From a virus: 64,000 bases of DNA. How positions within the stretch are numbered: position 1 is the stretch's first letter; the number at the start of each line of letters is the position of its first letter. Under the pieces are notes generated by a model that was given only the letters and a program-made list of their open reading frames with translations, was not told the origin of the DNA and searched no databases. A program made the translations under genes and the position numbers. Below, piece after piece: positions 1,458-61,311 of the stretch. Location: positions 96,001 to 160,000 of IMG/VR virus record IMGVR_UViG_3300005529_000023; one strand, 5' to 3'.

Positions 1458-1492
1458 TAGAATATCACAACTAGCGAACTATGTGATATAGC
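1458..1492. promoter_or_regulatory. Divergent extended -10-like promoters between helicase and chaperonin
   Basis: TG-A-TATAGC on + (1484-1492) and TG-A-TATTCT on - (1466-1458); together they form the inverted repeat TATCACA/TGTGATA. Confidence 0.4.
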
Positions 1493-16015: not shown

Positions 16016-16040
16016 TGTTTTCCCTTTCTTTCAGTTTCAG

Positions 16041-17066
16041 TTATTGCAGTACGTTCTTGAACTTGCCTGACTTTGCAGGAACGGCAACTTTCTGCGGTTC
16101 CTTAGCAAAGTCCACGACCTGGGTGGGATCGTAAGCCTGTGAAATCAACACAGCCTTGTCGGTTCCCAAGAGAGCGCTGCTACCGCTCTTTTCCCATTGC
16201 TCAAGCATTTTAAGCGCATCATCCTGGATGACACCCTTTTCGAGGTCCACACCCTTGATGATACCCTGAGAGAGGTCCATGATGTCGTCGATCTCTGCCA
16301 ACTGCTTGTTCGCAGTTTCAGCAATATTCTCCATCGCGCGATTGAACATCTCAGCTTCAGGGCCACTGCCGCCGATAACCTTCCATCCTTTGACCATACC
16401 CGCATGGGCAGCCATGATGGCTTTTCTTTCTTCCTTCTTGATCTCAAGTTCGCTGCGCGTCTTCTTGATGTTGAAATCGACGGTCGAAACCATCTTGTCA
16501 AGCACGCGATACATGAGTTCAATCTTGTTCTTCGTCTCAGTGAGAGACTTATTAGACAGTGTCAGCTGTTGAGCTTCGAGAGCCATCAAGGTTCGGCCCT
16601 GAACATCGCCCTGCTTTTCAGCCTGCTGAGCCATCTTAAGGTCTCTCTCAGCGCGATCTGCATTCGACTTGATCTTAGCCGTGAGACCCTTGAGTTGGCC
16701 ACCGACTTCGGCCTTACTTGACGACATCTCGTCCAAGCGAGACTGCATGATCTTGATGCTGGTCTCGATGACACCGATTGGATCTTGGTTTACGATGGCA
16801 TATCCAATTGCTCGGGTGAGAGACTTCCAAGCGTAGTACACCGCCGTGTGGACGTTCTTGTCTAGGGCCGCGAAAACCAAGGCCGCAAGAACTCCCATGA
16901 GGAAAACTGCGTAGATCGTGTTGGTCGCAGCCAAAATCACGAACGGCAGAAGATGGATCGCAGCGTAAGTCAGAAGTGCCGCCAAGGCCAATCCAACCAC
17001 GGGAGCGCCAATGAAGTTTTCACTCTTCTTCCACCAAGGCTTTCTCGAAACAGTCGTCGTATCCAT
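16041..17066 (-). CDS. PspA/IM30-like coiled-coil protein with N-terminal transmembrane hairpin
   Basis: Two TM segments, then QDPIGVIETSIKIMQSRLDEM and a long heptad region. Confidence 0.65.
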   Translation of the reverse strand: MDTTTVSRKPWWKKSENFIGAPVVGLALAALLTYAAIHLLPFVILAATNTIYAVFLMGVLAALVFAALDKNVHTAVYYAWKSLTRAIGYAIVNQDPIGVIETSIKIMQSRLDEMSSSKAEVGGQLKGLTAKIKSNADRAERDLKMAQQAEKQGDVQGRTLMALEAQQLTLSNKSLTETKNKIELMYRVLDKMVSTVDFNIKKTRSELEIKKEERKAIMAAHAGMVKGWKVIGGSGPEAEMFNRAMENIAETANKQLAEIDDIMDLSQGIIKGVDLEKGVIQDDALKMLEQWEKSGSSALLGTDKAVLISQAYDPTQVVDFAKEPQKVAVPAKSGKFKNVLQ

Positions 17067-22361: not shown

Positions 22362-22434
22362 CGCCAACTGCCGGATTCGAACCGGCGTTTCTGCCCGATA
22401 GTGGGAGCGTCCTAGGCCCCTAGACGAAGTTGAC
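22362..22434 (-). pseudogene. tRNA-Glu-like body with aberrant anticodon arm, no CCA
   Basis: GTCAACT/AGTTGGC acceptor; Glu-type D-arm TCGTCTAGGGGCCTAGGAC; perfect T-arm GCCGG-TTCGAAT-CCGGC; anticodon arm CTCCC-ACTATCG-GGCAG is non-canonical. Confidence 0.7.
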
Positions 22435-23108: not shown

Positions 23109-23164
23109 TTTCTTCCCTTTCGAACTAACAATTTGAATCTATCACACCTATTTTCTAAAACAAG

Positions 23165-31953: not shown

Positions 31954-31973
31954 ATTTGTGATATATCCTTGTT

Positions 31974-47618: not shown

Positions 47619-47645
47619 CCTGACCGATTCATTACATTATTCGGA

Positions 47646-47684
47646 AAGGCTCTTGGGAGGTATCCCAAGGGCCTTTTCCTTTTT
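47646..47684 (+). terminator. Intrinsic terminator after the tube gene
   Basis: AAGGCTCTTGGGA-GGTA-TCCCAAGGGCCTT followed by a T-rich tail. Confidence 0.8.
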
Positions 47685-47770
47685 ATGCGGCATTGATGCT
47701 AGTGGCAACATGCCTGACTTCCAATCAGGATTCATCAGTTCGATTCTGATATGCCGCTCCACTTTTTTGG

Positions 47771-47800
47771 TTGTTTTCTAAAAAACGACTATGATATAGT
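47771..47800 (+). promoter_or_regulatory. Sigma70-like promoter of the tRNA array
   Basis: TTGTTT-18 nt-TATAGT with TG extension; ends 3 nt before the tRNA-Ile acceptor strand. Confidence 0.6.
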
Positions 47801-47803
47801 CCC

Positions 47804-47879
47804 AAATGTGTAGCTCAGTTGGTAGAGCAGTTGCTTGATAAGCGAAAGGTCGTTGGTTCGAATCCAGCCACGCCGACCA
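47804..47879 (+). tRNA. tRNA-Ile(GAT), acceptor positions 1-3 mismatched
   Basis: Canonical D- and T-arms; loop TTGATAA; CCA; 5' AAATGTG vs 3' CACGCCG. Confidence 0.75.
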
Positions 47880-48014
47880 CGTAAGAGCGGTAATCTATAA
47901 GGTAAGTATGAACATGAGTAGATTTTATAAACATAATCAACGCCCAGAGGAACTCCCTGATATGTAGGACTGTGTTCATTATTGCCCAATCTCCTTAAAT
48001 AGAAACCCGAACAC

Positions 48015-48045
48015 AGCCCTCCTACGAAAGTACGAGGGCTTTTTT
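48015..48045 (+). terminator. Intrinsic terminator-like hairpin
   Basis: AGCCCTC/GAGGGCT stem followed by TTTTT. Confidence 0.6.
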
Positions 48046-48064
48046 ATTTCTACGAGACGAATTT

Positions 48065-48304
48065 ATGGAATTTTACAGACAATGCAAACTTAGATCCAAT
48101 GGCACCGAGCTGACGTGTTGGATCGAGGAAAGAGGGGCCAGGGTAGGTTGGCTCATTACGTTAGAGGACTACCCTGGCCAGTTGTGGAAGGTTATGGACG
48201 TTTATACGAAGCTACCTAAGCACGTAGTCTTTGAACAAGAACGTGACTACCTGAATCAAAGAAAGGCTTCCGACATTAAGAGCGGAAGTAGAGAGAGGTT
48301 TTAA
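48065..48304 (+). CDS. Hypothetical protein within the tRNA array
   Basis: 79 aa; YRQCKL...TCWI...GWLITL...WKV. Confidence 0.7.
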   Translation: MEFYRQCKLRSNGTELTCWIEERGARVGWLITLEDYPGQLWKVMDVYTKLPKHVVFEQERDYLNQRKASDIKSGSRERF

Positions 48305-48331
48305 CAGAATAGGGCGCATAGCGCCGACAAG

Positions 48332-48421
48332 CTAGCGGCAGACCAGTCTGGAGTGGTCGCCTGCCTTGGAAGCAGGAGAGACAGTGTCCTTGCGAAGGTT
48401 CAAATCCTTCCCGCTAGACCA
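48332..48421 (+). tRNA. tRNA-Pro(TGG) with long variable arm
   Basis: CTAGCGG/CCGCTAG; CCTGC-CTTGGAA-GCAGG; 17-nt variable region; CCA. Confidence 0.85.
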
Positions 48422-48430
48422 TTTTAAAAT

Positions 48431-48508
48431 AGTGCCTTCGTTCAGCCTGGTCCAGGACACTTGCCTGTCAAGCAAGAAACGCGGGTTCAAATCCCGTAGG
48501 CACTGCCA
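48431..48508 (+). tRNA. tRNA-Asp(GTC)
   Basis: AGTGCCT/AGGCACT; loop CTGTCAA; G73; CCA. Confidence 0.92.
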
Positions 48509-48565
48509 GTTTTGTAGGAAAAAATATACGGATCTTTGTAGGAGAAAAATACGATTTTGAAAGAG

Positions 48566-48641
48566 CTTTGCCAAGCTAACTCAGTAGAAGCGCGTGTTTG
48601 AAGCACACGAGGACTCGGGGCAGCACCGAGGGCAAGCACCA
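48566..48641 (+). tRNA. tRNA-Phe(GAA), atypical T-loop, imperfect acceptor top
   Basis: CGTGT-TTGAAGC-ACACG; T-loop GGCAGCA; CTTTGCC vs GGCAAGC; CCA. Confidence 0.8.
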
Positions 48642-48672
48642 ACTTTATAGGAGAAATATACGGTTCAAAAAG

Positions 48673-48761
48673 CTTGTGGAGGTGACTGTCGGCTGGTCAC
48701 AACGGTCTGTAAAACCGTCGTCCTTAACTGGGCCTCGTAGGTTCAACTCCTACCCACTCGA
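48673..48761 (+). tRNA. tRNA-Tyr(GTA), acceptor positions 2-3 mismatched, CCA not encoded
   Basis: ACGGT-CTGTAAA-ACCGT; long variable arm; CTTGTGG vs CCACTCG. Confidence 0.75.
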
Positions 48762-48767
48762 CATTGT

Positions 48768-48842
48768 CTCGCAGTAGCTCAATGGAAGAGCAGGGCACTT
48801 CTAAGGCCAAGGTTGTAGGTTCGAGTCCTACCTGCGAGACCA
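48768..48842 (+). tRNA. tRNA-Arg(TCT)
   Basis: CTCGCAG/CTGCGAG; loop CTTCTAA (weak anticodon stem); CCA. Confidence 0.85.
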
Positions 48843-48847
48843 AAAGA

Positions 48848-48933
48848 ATTCAGGTGGTGGAATGGCAGACACCCTAGTCTTAGAAACTAGTGCCTGAGAA
48901 GGCGTGTGGGTTCAAGTCCCACCCTGAGTACCA
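48848..48933 (+). tRNA. tRNA-Leu(TAG)
   Basis: CTAGT-CTTAGAA-ACTAG; long variable arm; CCA. Confidence 0.92.
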
Positions 48934-48943
48934 TTTATACAGA

Positions 48944-49018
48944 GTTGCTTTCGTCTAGCGGCTAGGACAACAGACTTTCACTCTGAGAACACGGGTTCGA
49001 GTCCCGTAAGCAATACCA
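48944..49018 (+). tRNA. tRNA-Glu(TTC)
   Basis: GTTGCTT/AAGCAAT; loop CTTTCAC; CCA. Confidence 0.9.
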
Positions 49019-49043
49019 AAAGGAGAATATGATGTAAAGATAT

Positions 49044-49120
49044 CGCGCTGTAGTATTAACTGGACAAAACCATAGCCTACGAAGCTAGAGTTCTCGGTTC
49101 GAATCCGAGCAGCGCGGCCA
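49044..49120 (+). tRNA. tRNA-Arg(ACG)
   Basis: CGCGCTG/CAGCGCG; loop CTACGAA; CCA. Confidence 0.9.
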
Positions 49121-49123
49121 GTA

Positions 49124-49198
49124 CCCTCAGTAGCTTATAGAGTAAAGCCGTCGCCTGTGAAGCGATGTAAGAGGATGCAAGTTCCTCCTGTCGGACCA
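49124..49198 (+). tRNA. tRNA-His(GTG), A73, no encoded G-1, acceptor positions 3-4 mismatched
   Basis: GTCGC-CTGTGAA-GCGAT; T-loop TGCAAGT; CCCTCAG vs CTGTCGG; CCA. Confidence 0.8.
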
Positions 49199-49202
49199 AA
49201 TC

Positions 49203-49278
49203 TGTGCTGAAAGCTTTAGTAGATGAGCAGCGGACTTTTAATCCGTGGAAGAGGGCGCGATTCCCTACAGCACAACCA
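49203..49278 (+). tRNA. tRNA-Lys(TTT)
   Basis: TGTGCTG/CAGCACA; loop CTTTTAA; T-loop CGCGATT; CCA. Confidence 0.88.
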
Positions 49279-49282
49279 AGAT

Positions 49283-49357
49283 GGGGTTAAAGCTTTGACG
49301 GTGAAGCTCTTGGCTCTTAACCATGAGAATCGGGTCCAAGTCCCGATAGCCCCACCA
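49283..49357 (+). tRNA. tRNA-Lys(CTT)
   Basis: GGGGTTA/TAGCCCC; loop CTCTTAA; CCA. Confidence 0.88.
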
Positions 49358-49361
49358 AAAT

Positions 49362-49435
49362 TGCGGATTCGTTTAGTGGGAGGACCACGGTTTCTGACAC
49401 CGAAAGCCTGAGTTCGATTCTCAGATCCGCAGCCA
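49362..49435 (+). tRNA. tRNA-Gln(CTG)
   Basis: TGCGGAT/ATCCGCA; G73; loop TTCTGAC; CCA. Confidence 0.88.
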
Positions 49436-49443
49436 GATTATGT

Positions 49444-49518
49444 TGCGCCATCGTACAGCGGCTAGTACGGCGGTCTTTGACACCGACAACCTGGGTTCGA
49501 GTCCCAGTGGCGCTACCA
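49444..49518 (+). tRNA. tRNA-Gln(TTG), U1xU72 mismatch
   Basis: TGCGCCA vs TGGCGCT; loop CTTTGAC; CCA. Confidence 0.88.
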
Positions 49519-49574
49519 AATTATAATTAATGAATTTAGTGGAAGTTCAGGTTTTAAGTAAATATAATTAGAGA

Positions 49575-49616
49575 GCTGGTGTCCCATAGTAGGTGCGAAT
49601 CCTACCACCAGCTCCA
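49575..49616 (+). ncRNA. 42-nt acceptor-stem/T-arm minihelix with encoded CCA
   Basis: GCTGGTG-TCCCATA-GTAGG-TGCGAAT-CCTAC-CACCAGC-T-CCA. Confidence 0.7.
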
Positions 49617-49625
49617 GAAATTTGA

Positions 49626-49700
49626 TGCGGAGTAGCTCAGCGGTAGAGCAGTCGGCTGTTAACCGAAAGGTCGTTGGTTCAATCCCAACCTCCGCAGCCA
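49626..49700 (+). tRNA. tRNA-Asn(GTT)
   Basis: TGCGGAG/CTCCGCA; loop CTGTTAA; CCA. Confidence 0.93.
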
Positions 49701-49734
49701 TTTTCCAGCCAATCCCAGCCATAATCTTAAGTGG

Positions 49735-50091
49735 ATGAAGAATTGTGCTAGACCAATGTGTCCAGAGATAAATCCTCAACCAATATCTAGGTTTACTAAA
49801 AATAGAACTAGAAAAGACGGTCACCATCAGTGGTGTAAAACTTGTGTAAGGGAAAATGACAGAAAGCGAGATAGGGCGAGACAGTTACATAAACGTCCTT
49901 ATCTAAAACACAAAAAAGAGCATTGTGAAAAGTGCGCTTTTATAGCTATTCATCCGTGTCAGTTGGATGTTGATCATGTTGATGGAAACCACGAAAACAA
50001 TGATCCGAATAATTTACAGACCTTATGCGCTAATTGTCATCGGTTAAAAACTCAATTGAATAAAGATTTTTTAAAGTCTAAAGTGTTATAG
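49735..50091 (+). mobile_element. HNH endonuclease inserted in the tRNA array
   Basis: CEKC...QLDVDHVDGNHENNDPNNLQTLCANCHRLK; its stop overlaps the first bases of tRNA-Ser. Confidence 0.9.
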
Positions 50092-50179
50092 AGGGCTGTG
50101 TGAGCGGCTGAAACAGCTTCTTTGCTAAAGAAGTAGTCCCGCTAGGGACTCACAGGTTCGAATCCTGTGCCCTCTGCCA
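50090..50179 (+). tRNA. tRNA-Ser(GCT)
   Basis: AGAGGGC/GCCCTCT; loop TTGCTAA; long variable arm; G73; CCA. Confidence 0.92.
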
Positions 50180-50286
50180 AAATTCGGAGTACCTATCTGG
50201 ACGACTACCAGGAATAACGCGGTACACCTAAGCGAGGGGTAACAGTCAAAGAAAGTCACTTTGATATGCGCCCCTTGTTGATTTTT

Positions 50287-50360
50287 AGGGGAGTAAGATA
50301 ACGGCAGTCACATTGGCTCCAACCCAATGGGTGTTGGTTCAAATCCAGCCTCCCCTGCCA
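50287..50360 (+). tRNA. tRNA-Trp(CCA)
   Basis: AGGGGAG/CTCCCCT; ATTGG-CTCCAAC-CCAAT; CCA. Confidence 0.92.
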
Positions 50361-50414
50361 TCCTAATCTTTACTATATCAGCGAAAGGTCGCTGATTTTT
50401 GGCAAGGATAAGGT

Positions 50415-53400
50415 ATGGCTTTAGAAAGAAAATGGCCAGCGGTAGCTCCGCAGGCGTTTACCTCTGACGGTAATCAATTTGGTCTAATCATCGTTGCTGA
50501 CACGAAAGGTTTTCGTGTTAAGCAATCAGCTGTACTAACCAATAGCACTCCTGGCGTAACACTCCCAGTTCAGATCAAAAGAGTCATTAGCAAGACGCAA
50601 CTCGTTGTTGGCCAAATAGACAACAAGATCGCGCAATGGCCACCTCTTGATATTTCGACCTGGACGGTAGCATCTGGCGCAGCTATCAGCGCTGGAGAAC
50701 AAGATAAAAATAACGTCCCTGAAAAGGATCATTGGTCGGCTATTTACGAGGGAGATCCTGTAGTAGCCGATCGCGTCATCTTCGTCGATCAATACGGCAA
50801 TTTCTACGATGACAACAATCCACTTCCGATCTCATTCGATGGAACCGTCACAGTCGGAGCAGTCAAAATTCAAGACAGCGCCGGCAACCCACTTACTTCT
50901 ACCAGTGGCTCACTAAACGTAAACGTTACTGGCGGTGGATCAGGCGGAGGTATCGCTCAAACCCAAGTCAGAAGCGCACTGAACGTTTGGACTGACGTAG
51001 GTTACGCAGGTGGCGATCTAAACATGCCCGTGCAAGTGCAATCGGCACTCCCAGCAGGAACAAATCTACTTGGCAAGGTAGGGATCGATCAAACAACCCC
51101 CGGAACTACTAATAGGGTAGCTGCCAACCTAGATCTTTTGGCTGGCTCACCTTTCAGCGCGACCAACTATTTACCCGCAAGAATCACCAATGGAACGGCG
51201 TATGTTGATCCAACGCAAATCAGGGCGCTCACCGCCTCAGATGTCGTTAGTGCTGCACAATCTGGAGCTTGGACTGTTAAAGCCCAGCTACAAGATAATG
51301 CCGGTACAGCAATTACGCTTGGCCAAAAGACTATGTCGTCTTCGTTGCCGGTTACTCTATCTTCTGACCAGTCCGCACTTCCTGTAAGCCAGTCTGGAAC
51401 GTGGACAGTTCAACAGGGAACTTCTCCTTGGAGTGTTAGTCAATCAGGAACTTGGACTACGGGGCGTACATGGACCCTAGGATCTGGCACCGACTCCGTA
51501 ACAGCTATACAAGGTGGTTCTTGGAGCGTCGCTAACTTTCCTACTACCGTAGACACCAATTATGGTACTATAGGCGCAAGTTCACTAAGAACAGCTGCTC
51601 AAATTGGCAACGCTACAGGCGCAGCTGCTTTTGGAGCAGGAACCACATCTGCTCAAGTGCTTCGTGTCGTTCTTCCAACAGACCAATCGGCAATTCCAGC
51701 ATCCCAGTCGGGTACATGGAATATCAATAACATCAGCGGTACAATCTCTTTGCCAACTGGCGCTGCGACATCCGCCAACCAGACTACGCAAATTACTTCT
51801 CTTAATCAAATCGACACCGATTTACTTGCTTTCAAATCAGCAAATCATACAGATTTGGCGGCGTTGCTTGCTGTTTTTCCTTCTCCTATTGATGTCAATT
51901 ATGGGACCGTTGGTGCTAAAACACTTAGAAGTGCTGCTCAAATTGGTAATGCCACAGGTGCTGCCGACTTTGGATCAGGAGCTACAGGCGCTCAAACACT
52001 CAGAACAGCAACAAACCTATATGATGGTTCCGCAAATGCTCTTACATCTGAACTTATCGGATCAAAACGTGCATTAGATGTCTCCTCACTAACGAATAAT
52101 ACCGCGACTTCTGGTAGTGCAAATTCGCTTAATGGTATTGTTTTCACCTTAGATGCTACTGGATACACCACTGCCTATATTTACTCATCTGCTTCCCCTG
52201 CAAATGGTGCGGCAACTACTGTTACTTCTATATTCGAAGTTAGCAATGATAATGTAAACTGGATCACTACTCCAGCTCAAACTCTTCAATATGAACTTGC
52301 ACCAGCTGGTGGTAGTCCAGGTGGCATAACTGGTAGTACATATATGGTGCAAAGCGGAGCTGCTACCCAACCTTATATGTTTAAGGTTCGGATTAACGGA
52401 CGTTATTTGCGTCAACGCCTCGATTTCTATACTGGCTCAGGTTCAACCGTAACTTCGACTGTATATTTGAGTAGTGTTGATTCGAACGACTACATCATCA
52501 ATACCAACACAGTCATTACAGATCAGTTGGGACTCAATTCAATGGAGTTTGGTCAGAATACTATGTCAAGTAGTATACCTGTGGTTATCGCTTCTGACCA
52601 AACCGCAATTCCGGTTACAGTTTCTAGCTTACCTAGCACAGTAGATACCAACTTTGGAACGGTAGGAGCAAACACTTTACGAAGTGCTGCTCAAATTGGC
52701 AACGCTACAGGCGCAGCTGCTTTTGGAGCAGGAACTACATCTGCACAAGTTCTCCGCGTAGTTCTTCCAACAGACCAATCGGCAATTCCAGCTACTCAGT
52801 CAGGAACTTGGACAGTTCAACAAGGTGGAGCACCTTGGAGTGTAAGCCAATCTGGTGCGCCTTGGTCAGTATCTCAGTCTGGTACATGGACAGTCCAGCA
52901 AGGGACTCCTCCGTGGTCGGTTGTTGGTAACATTGCTTCAGGATCTGCAGATTCTGGCAATCCTTTAAAAGTAGGCGGTGTTTTCAACACAGCCTTTCCA
53001 ACTCTATCGAATGGTCAAAGAGGTGACATCCAGCTCGATTCATCGGCCAGACAGGTCATCGCACCACTCACGAATGCAAGCATTGTAAAATCCCAACTAC
53101 AAGACAATGCGGGCACCGCCATTACCCTTGGCCAGAAAACAATGGCTTCTTCTTTACCAGTCGCCATTGCTTCGGATCAAACCGCTATCCCTGCTTCTCA
53201 GTCTGGCACTTGGACCGTACAGCAAGGCGGTGCGCCTTGGTCTGTCAGTCAGTCAGGCACATGGACCGTACAGCAAGGAACTCCTCCTTGGCAGACGGTA
53301 GGTAACGTTGCTTCTGGCGCTGCAGATTCTGGCAATCCAGTTAAAGTTGGCGGAGTGTTCAATACAGCATTTCCAACTCTCACGAATGGCCAACGCGGAG

Positions 53401-54893
53401 ATATCCAACTAGATTCTTCCGCTAGACAGGTTATTGCTCCTCTAACTAATACCAGCGTAGTCAAATCTCAATTACAGGATAATGCTGGTACGGCGGTTAC
53501 TCTTGGTCAAAAGACCATGGCTTCTTCTTTACCTGTCGCTATCGCTTCAGACCAAACAGCCATTCCAGCGAGTCAGTCAGGTACCTGGACAGTCCAGCAA
53601 GGCGGAGCACCTTGGTCCGTAAGTCAATCTGGAACATGGACAGTTCAACCAGGAAACACTCCTAACACTGCACCCTGGTTAACTGCAAATAAAGATTTAA
53701 CTTCCATTACTCAAAGCCTAAACATGACAGCTACCACAAATGCTGTCACATTGGCATTAGGCACTGGACAATCTGTAACAGGAGTGCAGATCACCGGAGC
53801 GACGTGGACTGGAACCATTATCTTTGAAGGAAATATAGACGGTACCAATTGGTTCACTATTAATGCAGTAGTTCCTACTAGCGGCTCTATCGCCACTACT
53901 ACCACGGCCAATGGCCAATGGCTCGTCCCGGTTGCTGGTTTGGCAAGTTTTCGCGTTAGATGCTCCGTCACTGGCACAAACAGTGCGACAGTATCTCTCC
54001 AAGCAAGTACTGGCGAAACACCTACACAAGGAAATTCCTTACCTACTGGATCTAATACAATCGGTGCGGTAACTCAAGCTTCAGGACCATGGACTAATAA
54101 CGTCACTCAATTTGGTGGAACAAACATTTCTACTGGCACAGGAGCAGGCGGAGCTGGAATACCAAGAGTTACGGTATCAAATGATTCCAACGTACTTGCT
54201 ACTCAATCGGGCAACTGGACAGCTCGTATTGTAGGCAACACTGGCGTTGCTTTGGATGCTGCTGACAACGCAACCGCTCCTACTAACTCCGTCTTATATG
54301 CTGGATTATATAGCACTACCATTCCTGCGCTATCTTCAGGAAACTCTGCTGCAGCACGTTTAGATTCTACTGCAGCACAGTACGTTAATAACGAAGGTAG
54401 GAAAGCAACATACAGCTGTGCAGTTGTAGACTTTGCACCTATTTCAACTGCTACAGCTCCAAGCTTTTCTATCACCGGCAGCGCTACAAAAACTGTACGT
54501 ATTACGCGTATCGCTATCTCTGCAACAGCTGCTACTGGCGGTGTAGCGACTCTTAACTTACAAAGATTTTCCGCTTTATCAGGCGGAACTAGCGCAAGCC
54601 AATCTGGAAACATTGCAAAACATGATACTAATAACGCGACGGCAACGGCAGTGGTACGAACATGGTCCGTAGCCGCTACCACAGCTACTGGTGCTGGATT
54701 CTTCCGAAGCCTTCGTTTCGAATTTCCAACCCCTGCTGTTACTGTTCAGCCAGTACTCTATGAATGGGATTTCGGTGATAAGAACGGACAATCTTTAGTT
54801 CTTCGTGGAACCTCAGACTTTATTGGACTTTGCTTTAACGGAATTGGTACTACGCCTACTGCTGAAATTTACGTAGAGTGGACAGAAGAATAA
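50415..54893 (+). CDS. Long repeat-rich fibre-like virion protein
   Basis: 1492 aa, rich in T/S/G/A/Q; many SQSGTWTVQQG units; late motif upstream. Confidence 0.75.
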   Translation: MALERKWPAVAPQAFTSDGNQFGLIIVADTKGFRVKQSAVLTNSTPGVTLPVQIKRVISKTQLVVGQIDNKIAQWPPLDISTWTVASGAAISAGEQDKNNVPEKDHWSAIYEGDPVVADRVIFVDQYGNFYDDNNPLPISFDGTVTVGAVKIQDSAGNPLTSTSGSLNVNVTGGGSGGGIAQTQVRSALNVWTDVGYAGGDLNMPVQVQSALPAGTNLLGKVGIDQTTPGTTNRVAANLDLLAGSPFSATNYLPARITNGTAYVDPTQIRALTASDVVSAAQSGAWTVKAQLQDNAGTAITLGQKTMSSSLPVTLSSDQSALPVSQSGTWTVQQGTSPWSVSQSGTWTTGRTWTLGSGTDSVTAIQGGSWSVANFPTTVDTNYGTIGASSLRTAAQIGNATGAAAFGAGTTSAQVLRVVLPTDQSAIPASQSGTWNINNISGTISLPTGAATSANQTTQITSLNQIDTDLLAFKSANHTDLAALLAVFPSPIDVNYGTVGAKTLRSAAQIGNATGAADFGSGATGAQTLRTATNLYDGSANALTSELIGSKRALDVSSLTNNTATSGSANSLNGIVFTLDATGYTTAYIYSSASPANGAATTVTSIFEVSNDNVNWITTPAQTLQYELAPAGGSPGGITGSTYMVQSGAATQPYMFKVRINGRYLRQRLDFYTGSGSTVTSTVYLSSVDSNDYIINTNTVITDQLGLNSMEFGQNTMSSSIPVVIASDQTAIPVTVSSLPSTVDTNFGTVGANTLRSAAQIGNATGAAAFGAGTTSAQVLRVVLPTDQSAIPATQSGTWTVQQGGAPWSVSQSGAPWSVSQSGTWTVQQGTPPWSVVGNIASGSADSGNPLKVGGVFNTAFPTLSNGQRGDIQLDSSARQVIAPLTNASIVKSQLQDNAGTAITLGQKTMASSLPVAIASDQTAIPASQSGTWTVQQGGAPWSVSQSGTWTVQQGTPPWQTVGNVASGAADSGNPVKVGGVFNTAFPTLTNGQRGDIQLDSSARQVIAPLTNTSVVKSQLQDNAGTAVTLGQKTMASSLPVAIASDQTAIPASQSGTWTVQQGGAPWSVSQSGTWTVQPGNTPNTAPWLTANKDLTSITQSLNMTATTNAVTLALGTGQSVTGVQITGATWTGTIIFEGNIDGTNWFTINAVVPTSGSIATTTTANGQWLVPVAGLASFRVRCSVTGTNSATVSLQASTGETPTQGNSLPTGSNTIGAVTQASGPWTNNVTQFGGTNISTGTGAGGAGIPRVTVSNDSNVLATQSGNWTARIVGNTGVALDAADNATAPTNSVLYAGLYSTTIPALSSGNSAAARLDSTAAQYVNNEGRKATYSCAVVDFAPISTATAPSFSITGSATKTVRITRIAISATAATGGVATLNLQRFSALSGGTSASQSGNIAKHDTNNATATAVVRTWSVAATTATGAGFFRSLRFEFPTPAVTVQPVLYEWDFGDKNGQSLVLRGTSDFIGLCFNGIGTTPTAEIYVEWTEE
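52881..53640 (+). repeat. Tandem duplication of a 375-nt (125-aa) unit within the fibre gene
   Basis: Copies start near 52881 and 53256: GTWTVQQGTPPW...GQRGDIQLDSSARQVIAPLTN...GGAPWSVSQS. Confidence 0.85.
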
Positions 54894-54914
54894 GCCATCC
54901 TTGGCCTATTGAAC

Positions 54915-55502
54915 TTACTGAGCCGGAGCGTAAGTTGTTACCCAACCACCTGCAGCTGTGCTGTAGGTTGCAGTGTAACTGTATCGTTTTGACTGATAAT
55001 CGGACCAATAAGAAGGAAGTTGATCTGCCGTGCAGGGATTCGACCCAATTTTGGAAGGGTCTGCACCACCGTTAGTGACATCGCCTACATCGCAATTCGT
55101 GAAGTAAAATTCGTAGAGCGTATCCGATGTAGAGCCATCAACATTACTATCAGTTGATTCAAAGCCGAATCCAGCTGGCGCACAACCAGCGTAGGTGTTG
55201 CCATCACCACCCCAACTAGGATCGTCGTACCAATTCTCACAGGTGTCATAAGACGTAGGAGTCTTATCGACCAACGTGAACGTATCTCCATCCGAAGGGC
55301 CGGTAGGAAGATAAGTGAGAAGACTGGTCGTACCAGCATCGGCTTGAGTAGCATTCACAATGCACTGGCTAGCCGTAAGATGATCATAGGGATCGGCTTG
55401 CGACCAAGTGAGATCGCTAGTGTTACTACAACCAGAGCTTCCTGCCTGAGCATTGCCGCAAGCAAAGACCAAAAGACTAAGGACAAGAACAAACAATTTC
55501 AT
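54915..55502 (-). CDS. Secreted/lipoprotein-like Cys-rich acidic protein
   Basis: Signal peptide with VFAC lipobox-like motif; 7 Cys; rich in D/S/T/G. Confidence 0.7.
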   Translation of the reverse strand: MKLFVLVLSLLVFACGNAQAGSSGCSNTSDLTWSQADPYDHLTASQCIVNATQADAGTTSLLTYLPTGPSDGDTFTLVDKTPTSYDTCENWYDDPSWGGDGNTYAGCAPAGFGFESTDSNVDGSTSDTLYEFYFTNCDVGDVTNGGADPSKIGSNPCTADQLPSYWSDYQSKRYSYTATYSTAAGGWVTTYAPAQ

Positions 55503-55587
55503 TTTTTGATTTCTCCTAAAAGTTAAGTGACCTAGAACGCCAGGCTACTATGCCGCTCGCTGTAGGTCAATTAAGAAAATAGCGTAT

Positions 55588-55980
55588 TTAACGACCAATG
55601 AGCCTGGCCGTCATGAAACCAACTGCTACCGTCGAAAGTACACCAAGGCCGAAATAAAGCCAATCGTTTTTCTTTTGTAGTTCATCGACCTTAGTTAAGC
55701 GATCCGTTAGTTTGTCACTAGTATCCATCCATAACTGAGTTCTGCTATCGGCCTTTGTAATAGCAAGATCCTTCAGATTGATAGCCTGAACATAATCTGC
55801 GATCTGCTTATCTTTGGTTGCATTGTCCTGAATCAACTGTCCTACCTTTTGATGGCATTCTTCGCTGTAGATGAAAGTATGATTTGGACCCGGGGTGATC
55901 CCCTTCGAGAAGTCGCAATCCGCATAAGCTGCGCTCGAAAGACAGCTAAAAATTAAAACACTAGCTATGACCTTTTTCAT
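55588..55980 (-). CDS. Spanin-like protein (signal peptide, coiled coil, C-terminal TM)
   Basis: MKKVIASVLIFSC...; C-terminal WLYFGLGVLSTVAVGFMTA; third gene of the lysis-like cassette. Confidence 0.5.
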   Translation of the reverse strand: MKKVIASVLIFSCLSSAAYADCDFSKGITPGPNHTFIYSEECHQKVGQLIQDNATKDKQIADYVQAINLKDLAITKADSRTQLWMDTSDKLTDRLTKVDELQKKNDWLYFGLGVLSTVAVGFMTARLIGR

Positions 55981-56078
55981 GTTCAATCAATTCCTTCAAA
56001 GTAAAATTCTTTACTACGTAACAAATCCTATAAGCAGCCAGTCCAATACAAAACAAAGCGCCCAAAAGGACGATCAAG

Positions 56079-56438
56079 CTACGGCTTCTTTTTATACCAG
56101 TCATCGTCCACCGGCTGCTCTTGCGAAGGAAGCTGTTCAGCCTTCTTCACCAAATCATTTGCTTGTTGGTTTGCTTGATTCTCTTGGGCGGCTAACTTAC
56201 CATCCTTGTTTTCAGCGTTCTTTTCAATGTTCTTTCCGCTGTTGACAAGAATGTCAATTAAGATATCTCTGAACTTGATAATCAAAATCAGTGCTCCAAA
56301 GATAATAACAAACCACTTATCCTTCTCCCATAGCTCTCCAATATCCGAGTTGATCTTATCGAGAAAAGTAGGCTTAGTTGGTTGTGGTGCTGGCGCAGGC
56401 GTCTGCGGAGGAGTTACGGGAGTTTGTTCGTCTGCCAT
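56079..56438 (-). CDS. i-spanin-like protein (single TM, Q/N-rich periplasmic tail)
   Basis: WFVIIFGALILII TM followed by a coiled coil; coupled to the holin-like gene. Confidence 0.5.
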   Translation of the reverse strand: MADEQTPVTPPQTPAPAPQPTKPTFLDKINSDIGELWEKDKWFVIIFGALILIIKFRDILIDILVNSGKNIEKNAENKDGKLAAQENQANQQANDLVKKAEQLPSQEQPVDDDWYKKKP

Positions 56439-56743
56439 TATGAACCCGCCTTTGGAGTAGCTTCTTCGTCACCCGAAACAACGTCATCACCCTGAGGCTG
56501 AGCTTGCACGGTAGTCAGCTGGCCCTTAGCGTTGATGTATTCTTTTACGGTAGTCATGATGTGCTCTACACCATTGCCGGCAACGAAACCCATGAAGATG
56601 GATTTCTGAAGATCCACAAACTGAGAACCTTCAATTAAGCCCTTTAGGCGAAATACAACTGCAACGACGAAAAGTGCTAACCATGCGATAAACTTACGGA
56701 AACCGTAAACTACATTGATCCAATCGGCGATTTTCTGTTTCAT
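56438..56743 (-). CDS. Holin-like membrane protein
   Basis: YGFRKFIAWLALFVVAVVF...IFMGFVAGNGVEH (two hydrophobic segments). Confidence 0.6.
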   Translation of the reverse strand: MKQKIADWINVVYGFRKFIAWLALFVVAVVFRLKGLIEGSQFVDLQKSIFMGFVAGNGVEHIMTTVKEYINAKGQLTTVQAQPQGDDVVSGDEEATPKAGS

Positions 56744-56795
56744 AATCAGGATATATCACATGTCGAGTAATCTTAAATGAAGTCGGAGATTTCGC

Positions 56796-57173
56796 ATGGA
56801 CCTTTCACAATACCAAAACTTAGTTCCAGAAGCCGGAGTTGTAATCACTCTCGGCACAGCTTGGCTCACAGTAAGAAAGATCGCCCGCGATTTTGAGCGC
56901 TCTAAAAAGGAACAGGCTGCGGAGATCCTACAATCGGCCAAAGAAGCCGACGCGGCAATGAAGCTCAAACTTGAAGGGAAGATCCATGACCTAGAAAGTC
57001 AGGTAAAGAACTTCAAGGAAAACGTTGAAAAAGACTTAAATCACTTACGAGAAACGTACAATGGCGAACTCAAGTTTCTCGGCCAGAAGATCGAGGAGCT
57101 TCGTTCCGAGGTTCGTAATCAGCATAGTCAGCTTGTTCAGCTTCTGACGAAGATGATTGAGAACCGCGACTAA
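56796..57173 (+). CDS. Single-TM coiled-coil protein (holin/antiholin-like)
   Basis: N-terminal TM, heptad repeat, late motif upstream. Confidence 0.6.
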   Translation: MDLSQYQNLVPEAGVVITLGTAWLTVRKIARDFERSKKEQAAEILQSAKEADAAMKLKLEGKIHDLESQVKNFKENVEKDLNHLRETYNGELKFLGQKIEELRSEVRNQHSQLVQLLTKMIENRD

Positions 57174-57301
57174 TCTCCCTAGCACATGCTATGTGCAGCA
57201 CCCGCAGATGGCCATCCACTAGCATTTCCCTGAAGCTGAAATAGTTACGAAGTCTATTCCCGCATTCCCAACAAAACTTCACTCGCGCTCTAGGTTTCAT
57301 A

Positions 57302-57577
57302 TCAATCCTTTAGCTGGTGACTTTCCACTCTATATCTGAGAGCGAAGTCAATCTTCTGATACTTATCGCCCATCTCCCAATCCCTGGCCAAAGGCTCTGC
57401 AAGCCTCGTTACAGCCTCTCCCATGGCCTTTATAGCGCCCTGAATAGTCCTATAGTACCCAAGGGTCTCTCCTACAAGCTCGTCATATAACTCGTAGAAA
57501 CAATCATTACGGAAGGAAATAGGTTCCAACTGCTCTCTCCAGTATGGCCAAATCAGCCATGGTAATGAAGACCTCAA
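57302..57577 (-). CDS. Hypothetical protein (start uncertain)
   Basis: ORF in the minus-strand early cluster. Confidence 0.5.
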   Translation of the reverse strand: MRSSLPWLIWPYWREQLEPISFRNDCFYELYDELVGETLGYYRTIQGAIKAMGEAVTRLAEPLARDWEMGDKYQKIDFALRYRVESHQLKD

Positions 57578-57752
57578 GCTGGCCTTCCATCAAAAGAATG
57601 TTTGTTCGCCTGACGATTACACCTTCGAAGTTATCATCTTCTTCACTCGCGATAGTAGCCACAACCATAGTTGGATTGATGGTCACGCGGGCCTTGGAGC
57701 CATCCTCGGCATGATTCATTAAGGTTAAAACTCTTTCCTGCATATCTTCCAT
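57507..57752 (-). CDS. Hypothetical protein
   Basis: GAGG RBS; 81 aa. Confidence 0.65.
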   Translation of the reverse strand: MEDMQERVLTLMNHAEDGSKARVTINPTMVVATIASEEDDNFEGVIVRRTNILLMEGQLEVFITMADLAILERAVGTYFLP

Positions 57753-57754
57753 GT

Positions 57755-58072
57755 TTACCTCACCAGATGTTCAAGGTCTTTGATCGCATTCTTGAACTCT
57801 ACCATTTTTTCAGTCAGAGACTTCAGATCTACTTTAAGCTGGCCAACCGTGAGTTCAGGACCGTAGTACTTGCGGCAATCCTCGCATGACCAACCAGCAC
57901 TCACCGCAACGAAATGAACGCAGCCACAGGAACAAGAGTCGGGCGCCCCAGCATGGCCTCTGACTGTTTTGACCAGTCTAAGGCTCACGCGTACACCCGT
58001 TCTTTTCACGATGATCTTGCTTTCTCTGCCAGTACTTTCTACCGCGAAGGTGAATGATCCTGCACTTCTCAT
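57755..58072 (-). CDS. Hypothetical protein with Cys cluster (start uncertain)
   Basis: CSCGC...WSCEDCRKYYG. Confidence 0.55.
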   Translation of the reverse strand: MRSAGSFTFAVESTGRESKIIVKRTGVRVSLRLVKTVRGHAGAPDSCSCGCVHFVAVSAGWSCEDCRKYYGPELTVGQLKVDLKSLTEKMVEFKNAIKDLEHLVR

Positions 58073-58232
58073 CGCAAAAGTCGAATCTGAGAGTATGGCC
58101 GGGCTGACCCTTTCGAGGAGCGCTAATCGTTTCCCAATTAATTGCGGTATTGGAACTCACTGGCGCCAAAATCTTGCGACAACGATCACAAAGCCATTTA
58201 GAGCCGGTACCATCAAAGCTATTCTTGAACAT
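57978..58232 (-). CDS. Hypothetical protein with CxxC
   Basis: Start coupled to the upstream stop; WLCDRCRK...FDFCDEKC. Confidence 0.5.
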   Translation of the reverse strand: MFKNSFDGTGSKWLCDRCRKILAPVSSNTAINWETISAPRKGQPGHTLRFDFCDEKCRIIHLRGRKYWQRKQDHREKNGCTREP

Positions 58233-58573
58233 TACTTCTTTCCAAATCGATCGAAACAGTCAACCTGCTCATCGGCATGACCCTTAGAGCTAGTTGTGAA
58301 CTTGTCTCCATAGGTATCTATCACTTCGTAACTGAAGCGACCCACTGCAATGACCTTAAAAAGCTTTGCTTCTGAGTGAGAACCATTCGGCGCAGAAATG
58401 TAACAATCGCCTACTTGAAGATCCTTTTCTGGCTCCATGGGAGTTGGAGGAGGCAACGTCCTTATGGAGCAACCAGAGAGAACCAGGAACAACAGGCTAA
58501 CTAGCCCTTTTGACACTTTTGAACTCCTTATTAAAAGAGAAAATGAAACCTTTGTACATCCCGAAGTGAGCAC
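58232..58573 (-). CDS. Putative lipoprotein (start uncertain)
   Basis: LLFLVLSGC lipobox followed by a P-rich linker. Confidence 0.6.
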   Translation of the reverse strand: MLTSGCTKVSFSLLIRSSKVSKGLVSLLFLVLSGCSIRTLPPPTPMEPEKDLQVGDCYISAPNGSHSEAKLFKVIAVGRFSYEVIDTYGDKFTTSSKGHADEQVDCFDRFGKK

Positions 58574-58763
58574 CGTTATGTCCGTTCTTAGTCATTTCAC
58601 CAATAGCTTCTTCAATCTCAGTAGCCTTGAAACCAAGAACAGAGATTGCATGACGAGCTACCTTGTAAAACGTACCAGAAAAGACTGACCCACCTTTTAC
58701 GTGCAAGAACCAAAGGTCTCCTACCTCGTAGAGATCGTAGCCAGCAGTGTTCAACTCGAACAT
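58497..58763 (-). CDS. Hypothetical protein
   Basis: AGGAG RBS and a good promoter upstream. Confidence 0.75.
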   Translation of the reverse strand: MFELNTAGYDLYEVGDLWFLHVKGGSVFSGTFYKVARHAISVLGFKATEIEEAIGEMTKNGHNGAHFGMYKGFIFSFNKEFKSVKRAS

Positions 58764-58781
58764 AACCTACTCCTACTATCT

Positions 58782-58810
58782 ACTTTAGCTACTTATTTTT
58801 CTTAAGTCAA
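58782..58810 (-). promoter_or_regulatory. Sigma70-like early promoter
   Basis: TTGACT-17 nt-TAAAGT; spacer contains AAAATAAG. Confidence 0.7.
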
Positions 58811-59000
58811 AATTATTTTCTTATTTTCGCAAAATCGCAAAATTCACATGATATATAGTTATATCCTCCCCTGTTCCCTCTCACTATATTATAATAATAG
58901 AAATAGGGACTTACACATTCTTTTGGTCCACTTTTCCTTTGGTTTCCAGGACTGAATCTTTAATACATCTGATATAAGTCAGTAAAATGGTGGGAGATTT

Positions 59001-59504
59001 ATGGAAGAAAGCGAAAAGAAGAAATATTTAGACCGCTCTGACGTGATTATCGAAGGAAATACAGCACGTTGGGATATGAGGATCGAAGGGAGCATCTACG
59101 GAACCTACACAGGAACGTTCCGTTTCAAATGTTTCTTGACTCCTACAGAAAAGCTGTCTGCCGGCAGGAAGTACCGAGAACTCCTTGGTCCTAATCCTAC
59201 GATCGCGCTTGAGCATGAAGACAACCTAGCCTTTGCACTCGCTCAGCTTGAGCATCGTATCATTAGTGCCCCACCTTTTTGGTCTTCTACTCTACAACAG
59301 AACGGACAAGCAGGAGATATCGCAGACGAGAATGTCGTTCACGAAGCTCTTGATGCCGCCATTGCAGCCGAACTCAAGTTCGCTGCGCAATTACAACAAA
59401 AAAAGAAAGAAGTCCTAGAGAACGCCAGGAAGGCAGCCGAAAGGCTTCTCAAGAATCAGGACGAGGAAATGGATGAAAGCCAAAGTCAAGAGGATGGAAA
59501 TTAA
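59001..59504 (+). CDS. Tail assembly chaperone-like protein
   Basis: YTGTFRFKC.LTP.EK..AGRKYRELLG...LAFALAQL...PPFW pattern; late motif upstream. Confidence 0.6.
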   Translation: MEESEKKKYLDRSDVIIEGNTARWDMRIEGSIYGTYTGTFRFKCFLTPTEKLSAGRKYRELLGPNPTIALEHEDNLAFALAQLEHRIISAPPFWSSTLQQNGQAGDIADENVVHEALDAAIAAELKFAAQLQQKKKEVLENARKAAERLLKNQDEEMDESQSQEDGN

Positions 59505-59709
59505 TCCACAAGCCTTTTTCATGATCATGGAGAATGATACCGCTTGGCGAGTAGCCAAGGGAATACCGAAAGGTGCGCGCCTTAGAGGTTTCACTCTCGA
59601 CCCGTACACCCAAGTGCTTCACTTATTCGTTGAACATGACAGCTTTCCTCTAGTCGATCTCGATACTCTAATCCCCAAACTTGAAACCTTCTTTAAGAAG
59701 ATCCAATAA
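59473..59709 (+). CDS. Hypothetical protein
   Basis: GAGG RBS; 78 aa; coupled to both neighbours. Confidence 0.6.
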   Translation: MKAKVKRMEINPQAFFMIMENDTAWRVAKGIPKGARLRGFTLDPYTQVLHLFVEHDSFPLVDLDTLIPKLETFFKKIQ

Positions 59710-60188
59710 TGGAATTCAAAGATTTACTCGACTACTGCAAGGCAATTGCGATCCAATCCCTGATCTCCCCTACGCAGGAATCCATCTGGCGCGCTATCTG
59801 CCGAGCCTACTCAAAGAAGTTCAACACTCCGCTTCACATAGTTGAACAACTCGATCCGCAAAAAGTGATGATAGCGGAATTCGAAGATCAGCTTTCTCAG
59901 TTCAACCTCGAAGAAGACATCCATGTCCTTTTGGATCTTATCTATACGCTCGAAGATCCTGAGTATGAGCGCGAGAAGAGAGAAGAGCTTTCCCAGTTCA
60001 TCAAACAGGCTGAGAAAGAAGACATCGCCCGTATCAAAGCTGGAAAGCCCATTCACAAGGCGCTCAAGGACGAAAAGAATATTGCCGATTTGGTCGAAGA
60101 AGAAGCTAAGAAAATGCCTAAAGGCGGCAGCATCAATTTGTCGTATCTTGAAAAAGAAGAGAATCAGTACGGACAGTTTGAAGACTAG
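59709..60188 (+). CDS. Possible second tail assembly chaperone
   Basis: IWRAICRAYSKKFNTPLHIVEQL; acidic C-terminus. Confidence 0.5.
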   Translation: MEFKDLLDYCKAIAIQSLISPTQESIWRAICRAYSKKFNTPLHIVEQLDPQKVMIAEFEDQLSQFNLEEDIHVLLDLIYTLEDPEYEREKREELSQFIKQAEKEDIARIKAGKPIHKALKDEKNIADLVEEEAKKMPKGGSINLSYLEKEENQYGQFED

Positions 60189-60427
60189 AGTCCCATTATT
60201 CCCTGCATTTGCTGAAACAGGAAGGCATGTTCCGCGTGAACAGTGAAAGCACTAAAGGACATACCAGGAAGGATCAAGTTTTCTTCTTCCAACTTAACCC
60301 ACATGGGTTTCAGCTGCGAAATGATCTGATCGTTGGTACAATCAGGATATCCAATTGACTTGGTAAGATGCTCGACCATTGAGTTCTTGATCTTCTCTTT
60401 GATTACTTGTAGTTCTTCGGCAGTCAT
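60185..60427 (-). CDS. Hypothetical protein
   Basis: 80 aa; coupled to the Thg1 stop. Confidence 0.65.
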   Translation of the reverse strand: MTAEELQVIKEKIKNSMVEHLTKSIGYPDCTNDQIISQLKPMWVKLEEENLILPGMSFSAFTVHAEHAFLFQQMQGIMGL

Positions 60428-61311
60428 TACCCGCCCATTTCATCGACCATACAATCGATAATCTCAGTATTGAGAGGAATTAGTTTACGAAGAAAAGAGC
60501 GATCTTGCGTAAATACTGGGATTTCATTCTCCATTCCAGTACCGTCGTAAGAAACCCATCGTGTACGATAGACAGGTTCGCTGACTTCTAACTCGCCGCT
60601 CACACCGGCTGTCTCGGTGTCGATAAGCACATAGCGATCTTTTTTGATCACACGTCCACGTTTCTCCCCGCTCCAGTAATCATTCCAGTTGATGTCTTTG
60701 GCAAAGAGCATGTTGTGCAGTTCGCTGGTATTCTTTCCCTCTAGCTGCTTATGGCTATACACCGATCTGGCAGCCATCTGAATGCTATTTCTGCTCGCGT
60801 CTTGTTGGCGCCAAATGAAGTAGTTCTCCACTTCGACCGGATCGGGGATAGTGAACACCCGAGAATCAAAATAGCCAGTCTTGAGTTGACCGTAATCGCC
60901 AGTCATATATTCGTTAGCATTGCCCCGAATTTCATTCGCCGTCTTAGCTGCTGTCGCAAACGCCTTGTTGAATTCGGCAGTAGCGATTGCAGCAGAGATT
61001 GACGCCATCTTCTGTACGTTGCCATCGAACCACGCACAAGTTTGTGGGCTGTCAAAGTCTGTCAGAAGAATAGAAATCTCATCCGATTGCACATAAGCGA
61101 ACTGCGCTCCTTGGATCTGTTTGCACATGTTGATCGCAGTTTGATCCATGACAAACATGAATTCATGATCAAATGGCCTACGAAAGTTGCGCGTTAGTGT
61201 GTGGAATGCTTTCCCATCCACGCGAATGATCGTGTATGTTCTCCTCGGAAGAAAGTACCGTGTGCGATCCTCGTACTGACCTTTGATTCTATCGCCTAGA
61301 GTGTCTTGCAT
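60427..61311 (-). CDS. thg1: tRNA-His guanylyltransferase / Thg1-like 3'-5' polymerase
   Basis: IIRVDGKAFH, YVQSDEISILL, WFDGNVQKMASISA, FDSRVF, NYFIWRQQDASRNSI. Confidence 0.95.
   Translation of the reverse strand: MQDTLGDRIKGQYEDRTRYFLPRRTYTIIRVDGKAFHTLTRNFRRPFDHEFMFVMDQTAINMCKQIQGAQFAYVQSDEISILLTDFDSPQTCAWFDGNVQKMASISAAIATAEFNKAFATAAKTANEIRGNANEYMTGDYGQLKTGYFDSRVFTIPDPVEVENYFIWRQQDASRNSIQMAARSVYSHKQLEGKNTSELHNMLFAKDINWNDYWSGEKRGRVIKKDRYVLIDTETAGVSGELEVSEPVYRTRWVSYDGTGMENEIPVFTQDRSFLRKLIPLNTEIIDCMVDEMGG

Follow-up and report, generated by a model that had tools for sequence, protein, structure and literature searches.

Thg1-like proteins (TLPs) carry out templated 3'-5' fill-in of tRNA 5' ends; for the bacterial and phage enzymes repair has, to our knowledge, been described only in vitro on artificial truncated tRNAs. 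The bacterial enzyme BtTLP favours templated fill-in of 5'-truncated tRNAs whatever their identity; the reaction was demonstrated for one or two missing bases, templated repair of a 5'-truncated tRNA is established for BtTLP and MaTLP only, and no genomically truncated tRNA is known in BtTLP's own host (PMC3061083). Ends bearing a 5'-triphosphate skip ATP activation, and templated addition by TLPs can extend over several nucleotides (PMC11404450). In the mitochondrial 5'-editing of Acanthamoeba, Dictyostelium (DdiTLP3) and chytrids a TLP rebuilds positions 1-3(4) off the 3' acceptor strand (PMC5041481, PMC4284800), and the RNA-repair genes of jumbo phages include Thg1 homologs (PMC7824862). 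Here we analysed bases 96001-160000 (64,000 nucleotides, hereafter the window) of IMG/VR record IMGVR_UViG_3300005529_000023, a single viral contig of 176,870 bp (46.6% GC) that is rated complete. The window encodes a TLP and, about 10 kb away, a tRNA array with a tRNA-Ile(GAU) gene whose promoter lies so close that its transcript is predicted to start inside the acceptor stem. We regard as probable a composite account in which the TLP is a general repair enzyme, the array is ordinary and tRNA-Ile(GAU) is a truncated transcription unit.

A promoter abuts the tRNA-Ile(GAU) gene

The tRNA-Ile(GAU) gene (coordinates in Table 1) has AAA at acceptor positions 1-3 opposite C70 C71 G72, followed by U4:G69, paired positions 5-7 and an encoded ACCA. 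Directly upstream lies a promoter with the -10 hexamer TATAGT; the last base of this hexamer is 47800, 3 nt ahead of nominal position 1, as the first-pass annotation of this sequence had described. The sigma-70 scanner passed over this promoter because its -35 element matches at 3 of 6 positions, and it was the recurrence of the extended -10 motif, T[GA]TGATA[GT]A[GTA][TC], that revealed it. The motif was found in 10 copies in the genome compared to 2.15 in shuffled sequences (about 5-fold). Three copies stand ahead of a ribosome-binding site and ATG. In four copies the ATG of an open reading frame (ORF) was positioned at nt 6, 8, 7 and 7 past the motif (ORFs of 75, 183, 226 and 101 aa; e.g. 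ATG 31974 and 56743), suggesting leaderless mRNAs and setting the start site at nt 7±1.

Two stand-alone, non-canonical tRNA-like genes, one Met-like and one Ala-like, were also found immediately downstream of this motif. Both have perfect 7-bp acceptor stems and an encoded ACCA and both were missed at the Rfam gathering threshold. In the Met-like gene the acceptor and D stems are 4 nt apart and the T loop reads TGCGATA; the Ala-like gene carries G3:U70. In a complete relative without Thg1 (G001) the motif lies 8 nt ahead of G1 of a canonical tRNA-Ala. Promoter-abutted tRNAs, at distances of 8, 6, 6 and 3 nt, are thus a trait of this clade, and a promoter class serving leaderless mRNAs and position-1 tRNAs would give an annotation handle for these phages.

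In the copy ahead of Ile, nt 7 past the motif is tRNA position 4 (47807), and the pyrimidine-purine rule favours a start at G5, with A3 also possible. We infer by analogy with the leaderless genes that transcription of Ile starts at tRNA position 4±1 and leaves a 5'-triphosphate; nominal positions 1-3 (AAA) would then be the promoter's discriminator. As this start would fall inside the acceptor strand, the gene would be 5'-truncated rather than mismatched. A start within the acceptor strand had been proposed in the first pass, and the calibration from within the genome strengthens that prediction.

The rest of the gene was evaluated with an acceptor-blind core model, a covariance model restricted to tRNA positions 5-68 because ARAGORN misses badly mismatched stems; the outer four pairs were scored separately with register shifts of ±1 allowed. 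The Ile body (47808-47871) scored 68.1 bits in this model (R1), second best of the 18 cores in the window, and is free of decay. The cores of Lys(UUU), Tyr and His scored 15.7-38.3 bits. The Rfam match to Ile was limited to model positions 5-66 (48.5 bits), ARAGORN at default settings did not call it, and tRNA-Ile homologs from GenBank phages aligned to it solely from position 4/5 to the CCA end.

The phage TLP and the repair genes of the genome

The proposal that this genome encodes a Thg1-like enzyme was confirmed. The ORF matched PF04446 with 99 bits (cut-off 29.2, E 2.6e-28) and PHROG 4717 with E 1.8e-78. Its best solved relative is BtTLP (4KGK, E 9.4e-49), with eukaryotic Thg1 proteins at 1e-7 to 1e-11. 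The catalytic motifs rvDGkaFH and qSDEis of the phage protein align with RIDGAHFH and QSDEIS of BtTLP, and the metal-binding carboxylates equivalent to human D29, D76 and E77 are present in the alignment. The TLP-type motif WRQQDASRNSI takes the place of the eukaryotic anticodon-recognition motif HINNLYN, as can be seen by comparing phage WRQQDASRNSIQ to Candida Thg1 WRQVDCHINNLY. By these motifs the phage enzyme appears to be an intact TLP of the templated 5'-repair type. Thg1 homologs are annotated in 161 GenBank phage records and were found in 74 IMG/VR contigs.

None of the neighbours of the TLP gene carries an RNA-processing annotation. Elsewhere in the genome, outside the window, a Pnkp-like gene, with a HAD_PNKP match (E 2.8e-30) and a kinase fragment, adjoins an RNA ligase gene (PF09414 and a PHA02142 OB-fold) at about 14986-16961 of G000 (L251:152-2127). 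Judged from their domains, these two genes form a putative T4-like tRNA break-repair pair, and their presence in the same genome makes the TLP look like part of a general tRNA-repair kit. The genome was also searched for a CCA-adding enzyme and for RtcB, and neither was found. A search for a T4 Rnl1-type ligase gave no match in the genome but was uninformative, as its control matched nowhere either.

Possible completion or loss of the Ile transcript

In the composite account a somewhat sloppy but ordinary phage tRNA array would share the genome with a general tRNA-repair kit of TLP, Pnkp and RNA ligase. The promoter abutting Ile would produce a primary transcript beginning with ppp-U4 or ppp-G5, without the 5' strand of the outer acceptor stem and with the G69-C70-C71-G72-ACCA template intact. 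Such a transcript should be the exact substrate type of a TLP, with a 5'-triphosphate, three to four bases missing and an intact template strand. The TLP could then fill in (C4)-G3-G2-C1 on the 5'-triphosphate end and rescue an otherwise dead Ile gene, which would be opportunistic buffering by a repair enzyme and not a designed editing pathway. The pristine Ile body, the completeness of its transcription unit and the presence of a TLP in the same genome all argue for this step, and we put forward rescue in vivo tentatively, as possible but short of probable.

Several points weigh against rescue. The start site is assigned by analogy and may be off by ±1-2 nt; initiation at A1-A3 would give a transcript with mismatched bases, which a TLP is unable to remove. 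The precedent for fill-in covers one to two bases (PMC3061083), compared to three to four on a 3-bp stem remnant here. The unrepaired transcript would be unable to form an acceptor stem, and its lowest-energy fold sequesters the 3' acceptor strand. The relatives lack any Ile(GAU) gene, and the only other copy of the phage, an ENA contig, is identical (0 differences over 6240 bp; exact-protein look-ups, in which the other match was one Logan contig), so that the gene offers no evidence of selection.

The absence of the gene from all relatives is also what would be seen if Ile(GAU) were a dead remnant. By this explanation a deletion or recombination event would have joined the array promoter to a tRNA gene at the cost of the gene's 5' end. 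The transcript would stay incomplete, and the TLP would serve only host or phage tRNAs with ends damaged during infection. The phage belongs to a poorly sampled clade: its sole isolated relative in GenBank phages, Myxococcus phage Mx1, shares 43% identity in the tail sheath, and 17 contigs of the same clade were found in IMG/VR (sheath protein identity 59-73%). In the relatives L001, L003, L012 and L013 the motif comes after the tail-tube terminator, and promoters of the same type in this position drive an ORF and then the array, a layout that makes fusion by deletion plausible. An exact search of viral contigs with the Ile T-arm and 3' acceptor gave no match. TLPs are common in phages whatever their tRNA content, and two other tRNAs with strong cores and broken outer stems occur in Thg1-carrying phages without the promoter logic seen here. 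A remnant is harder to reconcile with the undecayed Ile body, which outscored the Lys(UUU), Tyr and His cores, with the intact ACCA, promoter and terminator, and with an enzyme in the same genome able to complete this kind of end. We consider a dead remnant a serious candidate, though one we would not call probable.

A broader role for the TLP was also considered, namely 5'-end quality control for phage tRNAs whose 5' ends come from transcription initiation and not from RNase P. The stand-alone Met-like, Ala-like and Ile(GAU) genes sit right on a phage promoter, and imprecise or shifted initiation would generate 5'-triphosphate, 5'-recessed tRNAs that the TLP could extend to position 1. Ile(GAU), three to four encoded bases short, would by now depend wholly on the TLP, and would in that case be the first tRNA encoded in truncated form that a viral reverse polymerase completes. 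We think this role rather unlikely.

Acceptor mismatches do not track Thg1

The array (47687-50360) holds 18 tRNAs or tRNA-likes by our count, one more than the 17 of the first pass. ARAGORN called 15 of these, and Rfam added Ile(GAU), as a partial match, and Lys(UUU), which scored below threshold. When the array was compared with GenBank phages by Megablast, no match was returned. Five members had been described as mispaired in the outer acceptor stem with the other arms intact. The mismatches at Ile 1-3, Tyr 2-3, His 3-4 and Gln(UUG) 1 were reproduced. The fifth, Phe, was not called by ARAGORN, Rfam or the acceptor-blind core model; this Phe-like element combines a good GAA anticodon arm with a non-canonical T loop (GGCAGCA) and lacks a D stem, and its folding z-score is 0.21. 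All other array tRNAs have fully paired acceptor stems.

From these mismatches it had been proposed that the phage may encode incomplete tRNAs finished by its own enzyme, with simple pseudogene decay as the competing explanation. Taken in full, this model is a dedicated editing system of the mitochondrial type, in which Ile, Tyr, His, Phe and Gln would lose their first one to four bases and the phage TLP would resynthesise them. The TLP is intact, and all 8 of the 8 mismatched acceptor pairs in the array lie at positions 1-4, with none at 5-7. By the mitochondrial pattern of mismatches confined to positions 1-3, Ile, Tyr, Gln and the Phe-like element fit and His reaches position 4, outside classical editing; the difference from the phage background was not significant. 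When compared to a background of 596 phage tRNAs, with no correction for the window having been chosen as odd-looking, at least one outer mismatch was present in 4/18 array tRNAs (binomial P = 0.15) or 5/19 (P = 0.06), and the bias to outer positions alone gave P = 0.11, which was not significant because outer positions account for 68% of all acceptor mismatches in phages. At least two outer mismatches were present in 3/18 (P = 0.034), which is nominally above background; a modest local excess is thus possible, and this speaks for editing and against an ordinary array. The array is at most marginally unusual against the phage background.

To compare phages with and without Thg1 we used the tRNA-rich stretches of 21 Thg1-carrying viral records and 10 Thg1-lacking records rated at least 90% complete. 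By ARAGORN any acceptor mismatch was found in 52/447 tRNAs of Thg1-carrying phages (11.6%), 19/141 of complete Thg1-lacking phages (13.5%) and 123/1039 of unselected arrays (11.8%), and the mismatch position profiles of the three sets were alike. With the core model at least one outer mismatch was found in 51/454 tRNAs with Thg1 (11.2%) and 18/142 without (12.7%, P = 0.65), at least two in 18/454 (4.0%) and 6/142 (4.2%, P = 0.81), and at least three in 4/454 and 2/142. The picture was unchanged for strong cores alone (at least 45 bits), and the His pattern (||xx|||) was seen twice among 106 strong cores of Thg1-lacking phages. In addition, tRNA genes are absent from 4 of 17 complete Thg1-carrying phages, including the carrier of the closest TLP homolog (57% identity). 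This comparison of mismatches with thg1 presence was the check that the first-pass annotation had suggested, with equal frequency in relatives lacking thg1 named as a refuting outcome, and mismatches proved no commoner with Thg1. In this sample of about 600 phage tRNAs, acceptor-stem mismatches are unlinked to Thg1, and mismatches beside a Thg1 gene are therefore not by themselves evidence of editing.

Equal mismatch frequencies in phages lacking Thg1 leave a dedicated multi-tRNA editing system unsupported. Such a system would also need a 5' nuclease for Tyr and His, and we found no candidate in the phage. The Tyr gene encodes no CCA and scored 26.8 bits, under the Rfam gathering score, and looks like decay; in relatives the Tyr gene is fully paired and has an encoded CCA. 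As for the Phe-like element, it is not recognisable as a tRNA. Glutaminyl-tRNA synthetase (GlnRS) opens the 1:72 pair of tRNA-Gln, so U1/U72 weakens a pair that is opened anyway. Neither Gln nor the Phe-like element requires repair of its 1:72 mismatch. Together with the occurrence of TLPs in phages without tRNAs, these observations make editing of all five tRNAs very improbable. In the composite account, the genes for Tyr, His, Gln(UUG) and the Phe-like element either function as encoded or are decaying.

Broken outer acceptor stems on strong cores (49-61 bits) were also observed in other Thg1-carrying phages, at L213:8263-8324, L227:4147-4208 and L238:8292-8354. One of the three is apparently defective on the 3' side, and none has an obvious abutting promoter.

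Phage tRNA-His and the addition of N-1

The tRNA-His of the window has A at -1 and A73, with no encoded G-1, and the TLP could act by adding N-1 to it. BtTLP weakly adds G-1 opposite A73 and complements a yeast thg1 deletion, but its templated preference would put U, not G, opposite A73 (PMC3061083). The phage protein also bears the TLP motif and not the HINNLYN of Thg1. Most phage tRNA-His genes encode G-1:C73 regardless of Thg1 (12/21 with and 20/38 without). Since encoded G-1 in phage tRNA-His is independent of Thg1, G-1 addition was rejected as the main role of the TLP. A class of phage tRNA-His genes with A73 and no encoded G-1 was found at 49124-49198 of the window and at L013:14238, L114:125, L139:8663 and L178:335. 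Several of these start with C1-G72 and C2-G71, and several have two adjacent acceptor mismatches at varying positions. The occurrence of this class in other viral contigs suggests hosts whose histidyl-tRNA synthetase (HisRS) needs no G-1, a further point against N-1 addition, which we judge highly unlikely as the role of the enzyme.

Other features of the tRNA region

The tRNA-Gly gene begins 9 nt past a strong 16-bp terminator (47643-47678), and a promoter of its own is not visible. tRNA-Pro(UGG) (48332-48421) is 90 nt long, of which about 17 nt form the variable region. The homologous Pro genes in relatives share its CTAG... acceptor but measure 78 nt and have a variable loop of normal size. 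Positions 49565-49683, directly before tRNA-Asn, hold a hairpin or minihelix (GAGCTGGTG...CACCAGCTC) whose loop resembles that of a T arm and which gave a weak Rfam match to YrlA (Y RNA-like; 23 bits, gathering score 69). Among the tRNAs here CCA is not encoded only in Ile(UAU) (22362-22434, minus strand) and Tyr (48673-48762, plus strand); as the genome has no CCA-adding enzyme, these two would rely on that of the host. An exact-protein look-up of the HNH endonuclease ORF found it not on record.

Table 1. Positions of the tRNA genes, promoter motif copies and protein genes discussed in the text (window coordinates unless marked as genome)
Feature	Position	Strand	Description
tRNA-Gly(UCC)	47687..47761	+	fully paired; between the upstream terminator (47643-47678) and the Ile promoter
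Promoter before Ile	47771..47800	+	TTGTTT 47771-47776, 18-nt spacer, extended -10 TATGATATAGT 47790-47800
tRNA-Ile(GAU)	nominal 47804..47879	+	body from position 4/5 (47807/47808) through ACCA
Intrinsic terminator of the Ile transcription unit	48016..48045	+	10-bp stem, GAAA loop, T6; read from sequence
Main tRNA array	48332..50360	+	Pro, Asp, Phe-like, Tyr, Arg, Leu, Glu, Arg, His, Lys-UUU, Lys-CUU, Gln-CUG, Gln-UUG, Asn, Ser, Trp
Phe-like (GAA) tRNA-like element	48566..48641	+	C1/C72; read by eye and folded
tRNA-Tyr(GUA)	48673..48762	+	ARAGORN; U2/C71 and U3/U70 mismatches; CCA not encoded; weak score
tRNA-His(GUG)	49124..49198	+	C3/C70 and U4/U69 mismatches; A73; -1 is A, no encoded G-1
tRNA-Gln(UUG)	49444..49518	+	U1/U72
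HNH endonuclease ORF	49735-50091		118 aa; inside the tRNA array between Asn and Ser
Thg1-like protein (TLP)	60427..61311	-	294 aa, bacterial BtTLP type; PF04446, PHROG 4717, 4KGK
Promoter motif TGTGATAGATT	11299-11289	-	6-nt spacer, then Met-like tRNA gene 11282-11205; position 1 is the predicted start
Promoter motif TGTGATATAGT	22592-22582	-	6-nt spacer, then Ala-like tRNA gene 22575-22500; position 1 is the predicted start
Further motif copies, window	1482-1492(+), 23136-23146(-), 31957-31967(+), 56750-56760(-)		
Further motif copies, genome	5856(+), 9895(+), 34868(-)		

Comparison with known systems

The phage TLP aligns with BtTLP (PDB 4KGK/4KGM; Rao et al. 2011, PMC3061083; Hyde et al. 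2013, PMC3701042) over residues 3-227 with E 9.4e-49, and the two share the DG..FH, SDE and WRQQDAS(K/R)NSI motifs, so that templated 3'-5' fill-in of 5'-truncated tRNAs, whatever their identity, would be expected of the phage protein. Relative to BtTLP it carries about 18 inserted aa in the region of residues 118-140 and is longer by about 50 aa at its C terminus. The phage enzyme is a further member of the known phage and bacterial TLP group, and the tRNA array is ordinary.

The likeness to the mitochondrial 5'-editing systems would lie in the rebuilding of the first acceptor positions off the 3' strand. In mitochondria many tRNAs have encoded mismatches that a nuclease removes first, whereas in the phage a single gene is concerned and its missing bases would never be transcribed, so that no nuclease would be needed. 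The phage Pnkp, RNA ligase and TLP resemble the Pnkp and Rnl pathway of phage T4 and the loose associations of Thg1, ligase and Pnkp genes in jumbo phages (PMC7824862), but the TLP gene lies about 140 kb from the Pnkp-ligase pair and no anticodon-nuclease context is known for the phage.

The leaderless tRNAs of Nanoarchaeum equitans (PMC10100707, PMC3491384) start at tRNA position 1, as is predicted for the Met-like and Ala-like genes of the phage. In contrast, the phage promoter is a bacterial-type extended -10, and the arrangement is confined to stand-alone genes, with RNase P still required for the tandem array. The predicted start of phage Ile also overshoots into the acceptor strand. A 5'-truncated viral tRNA that is encoded by the gene itself, through promoter placement and not through mismatches and a nuclease, is possibly a new element among these systems.

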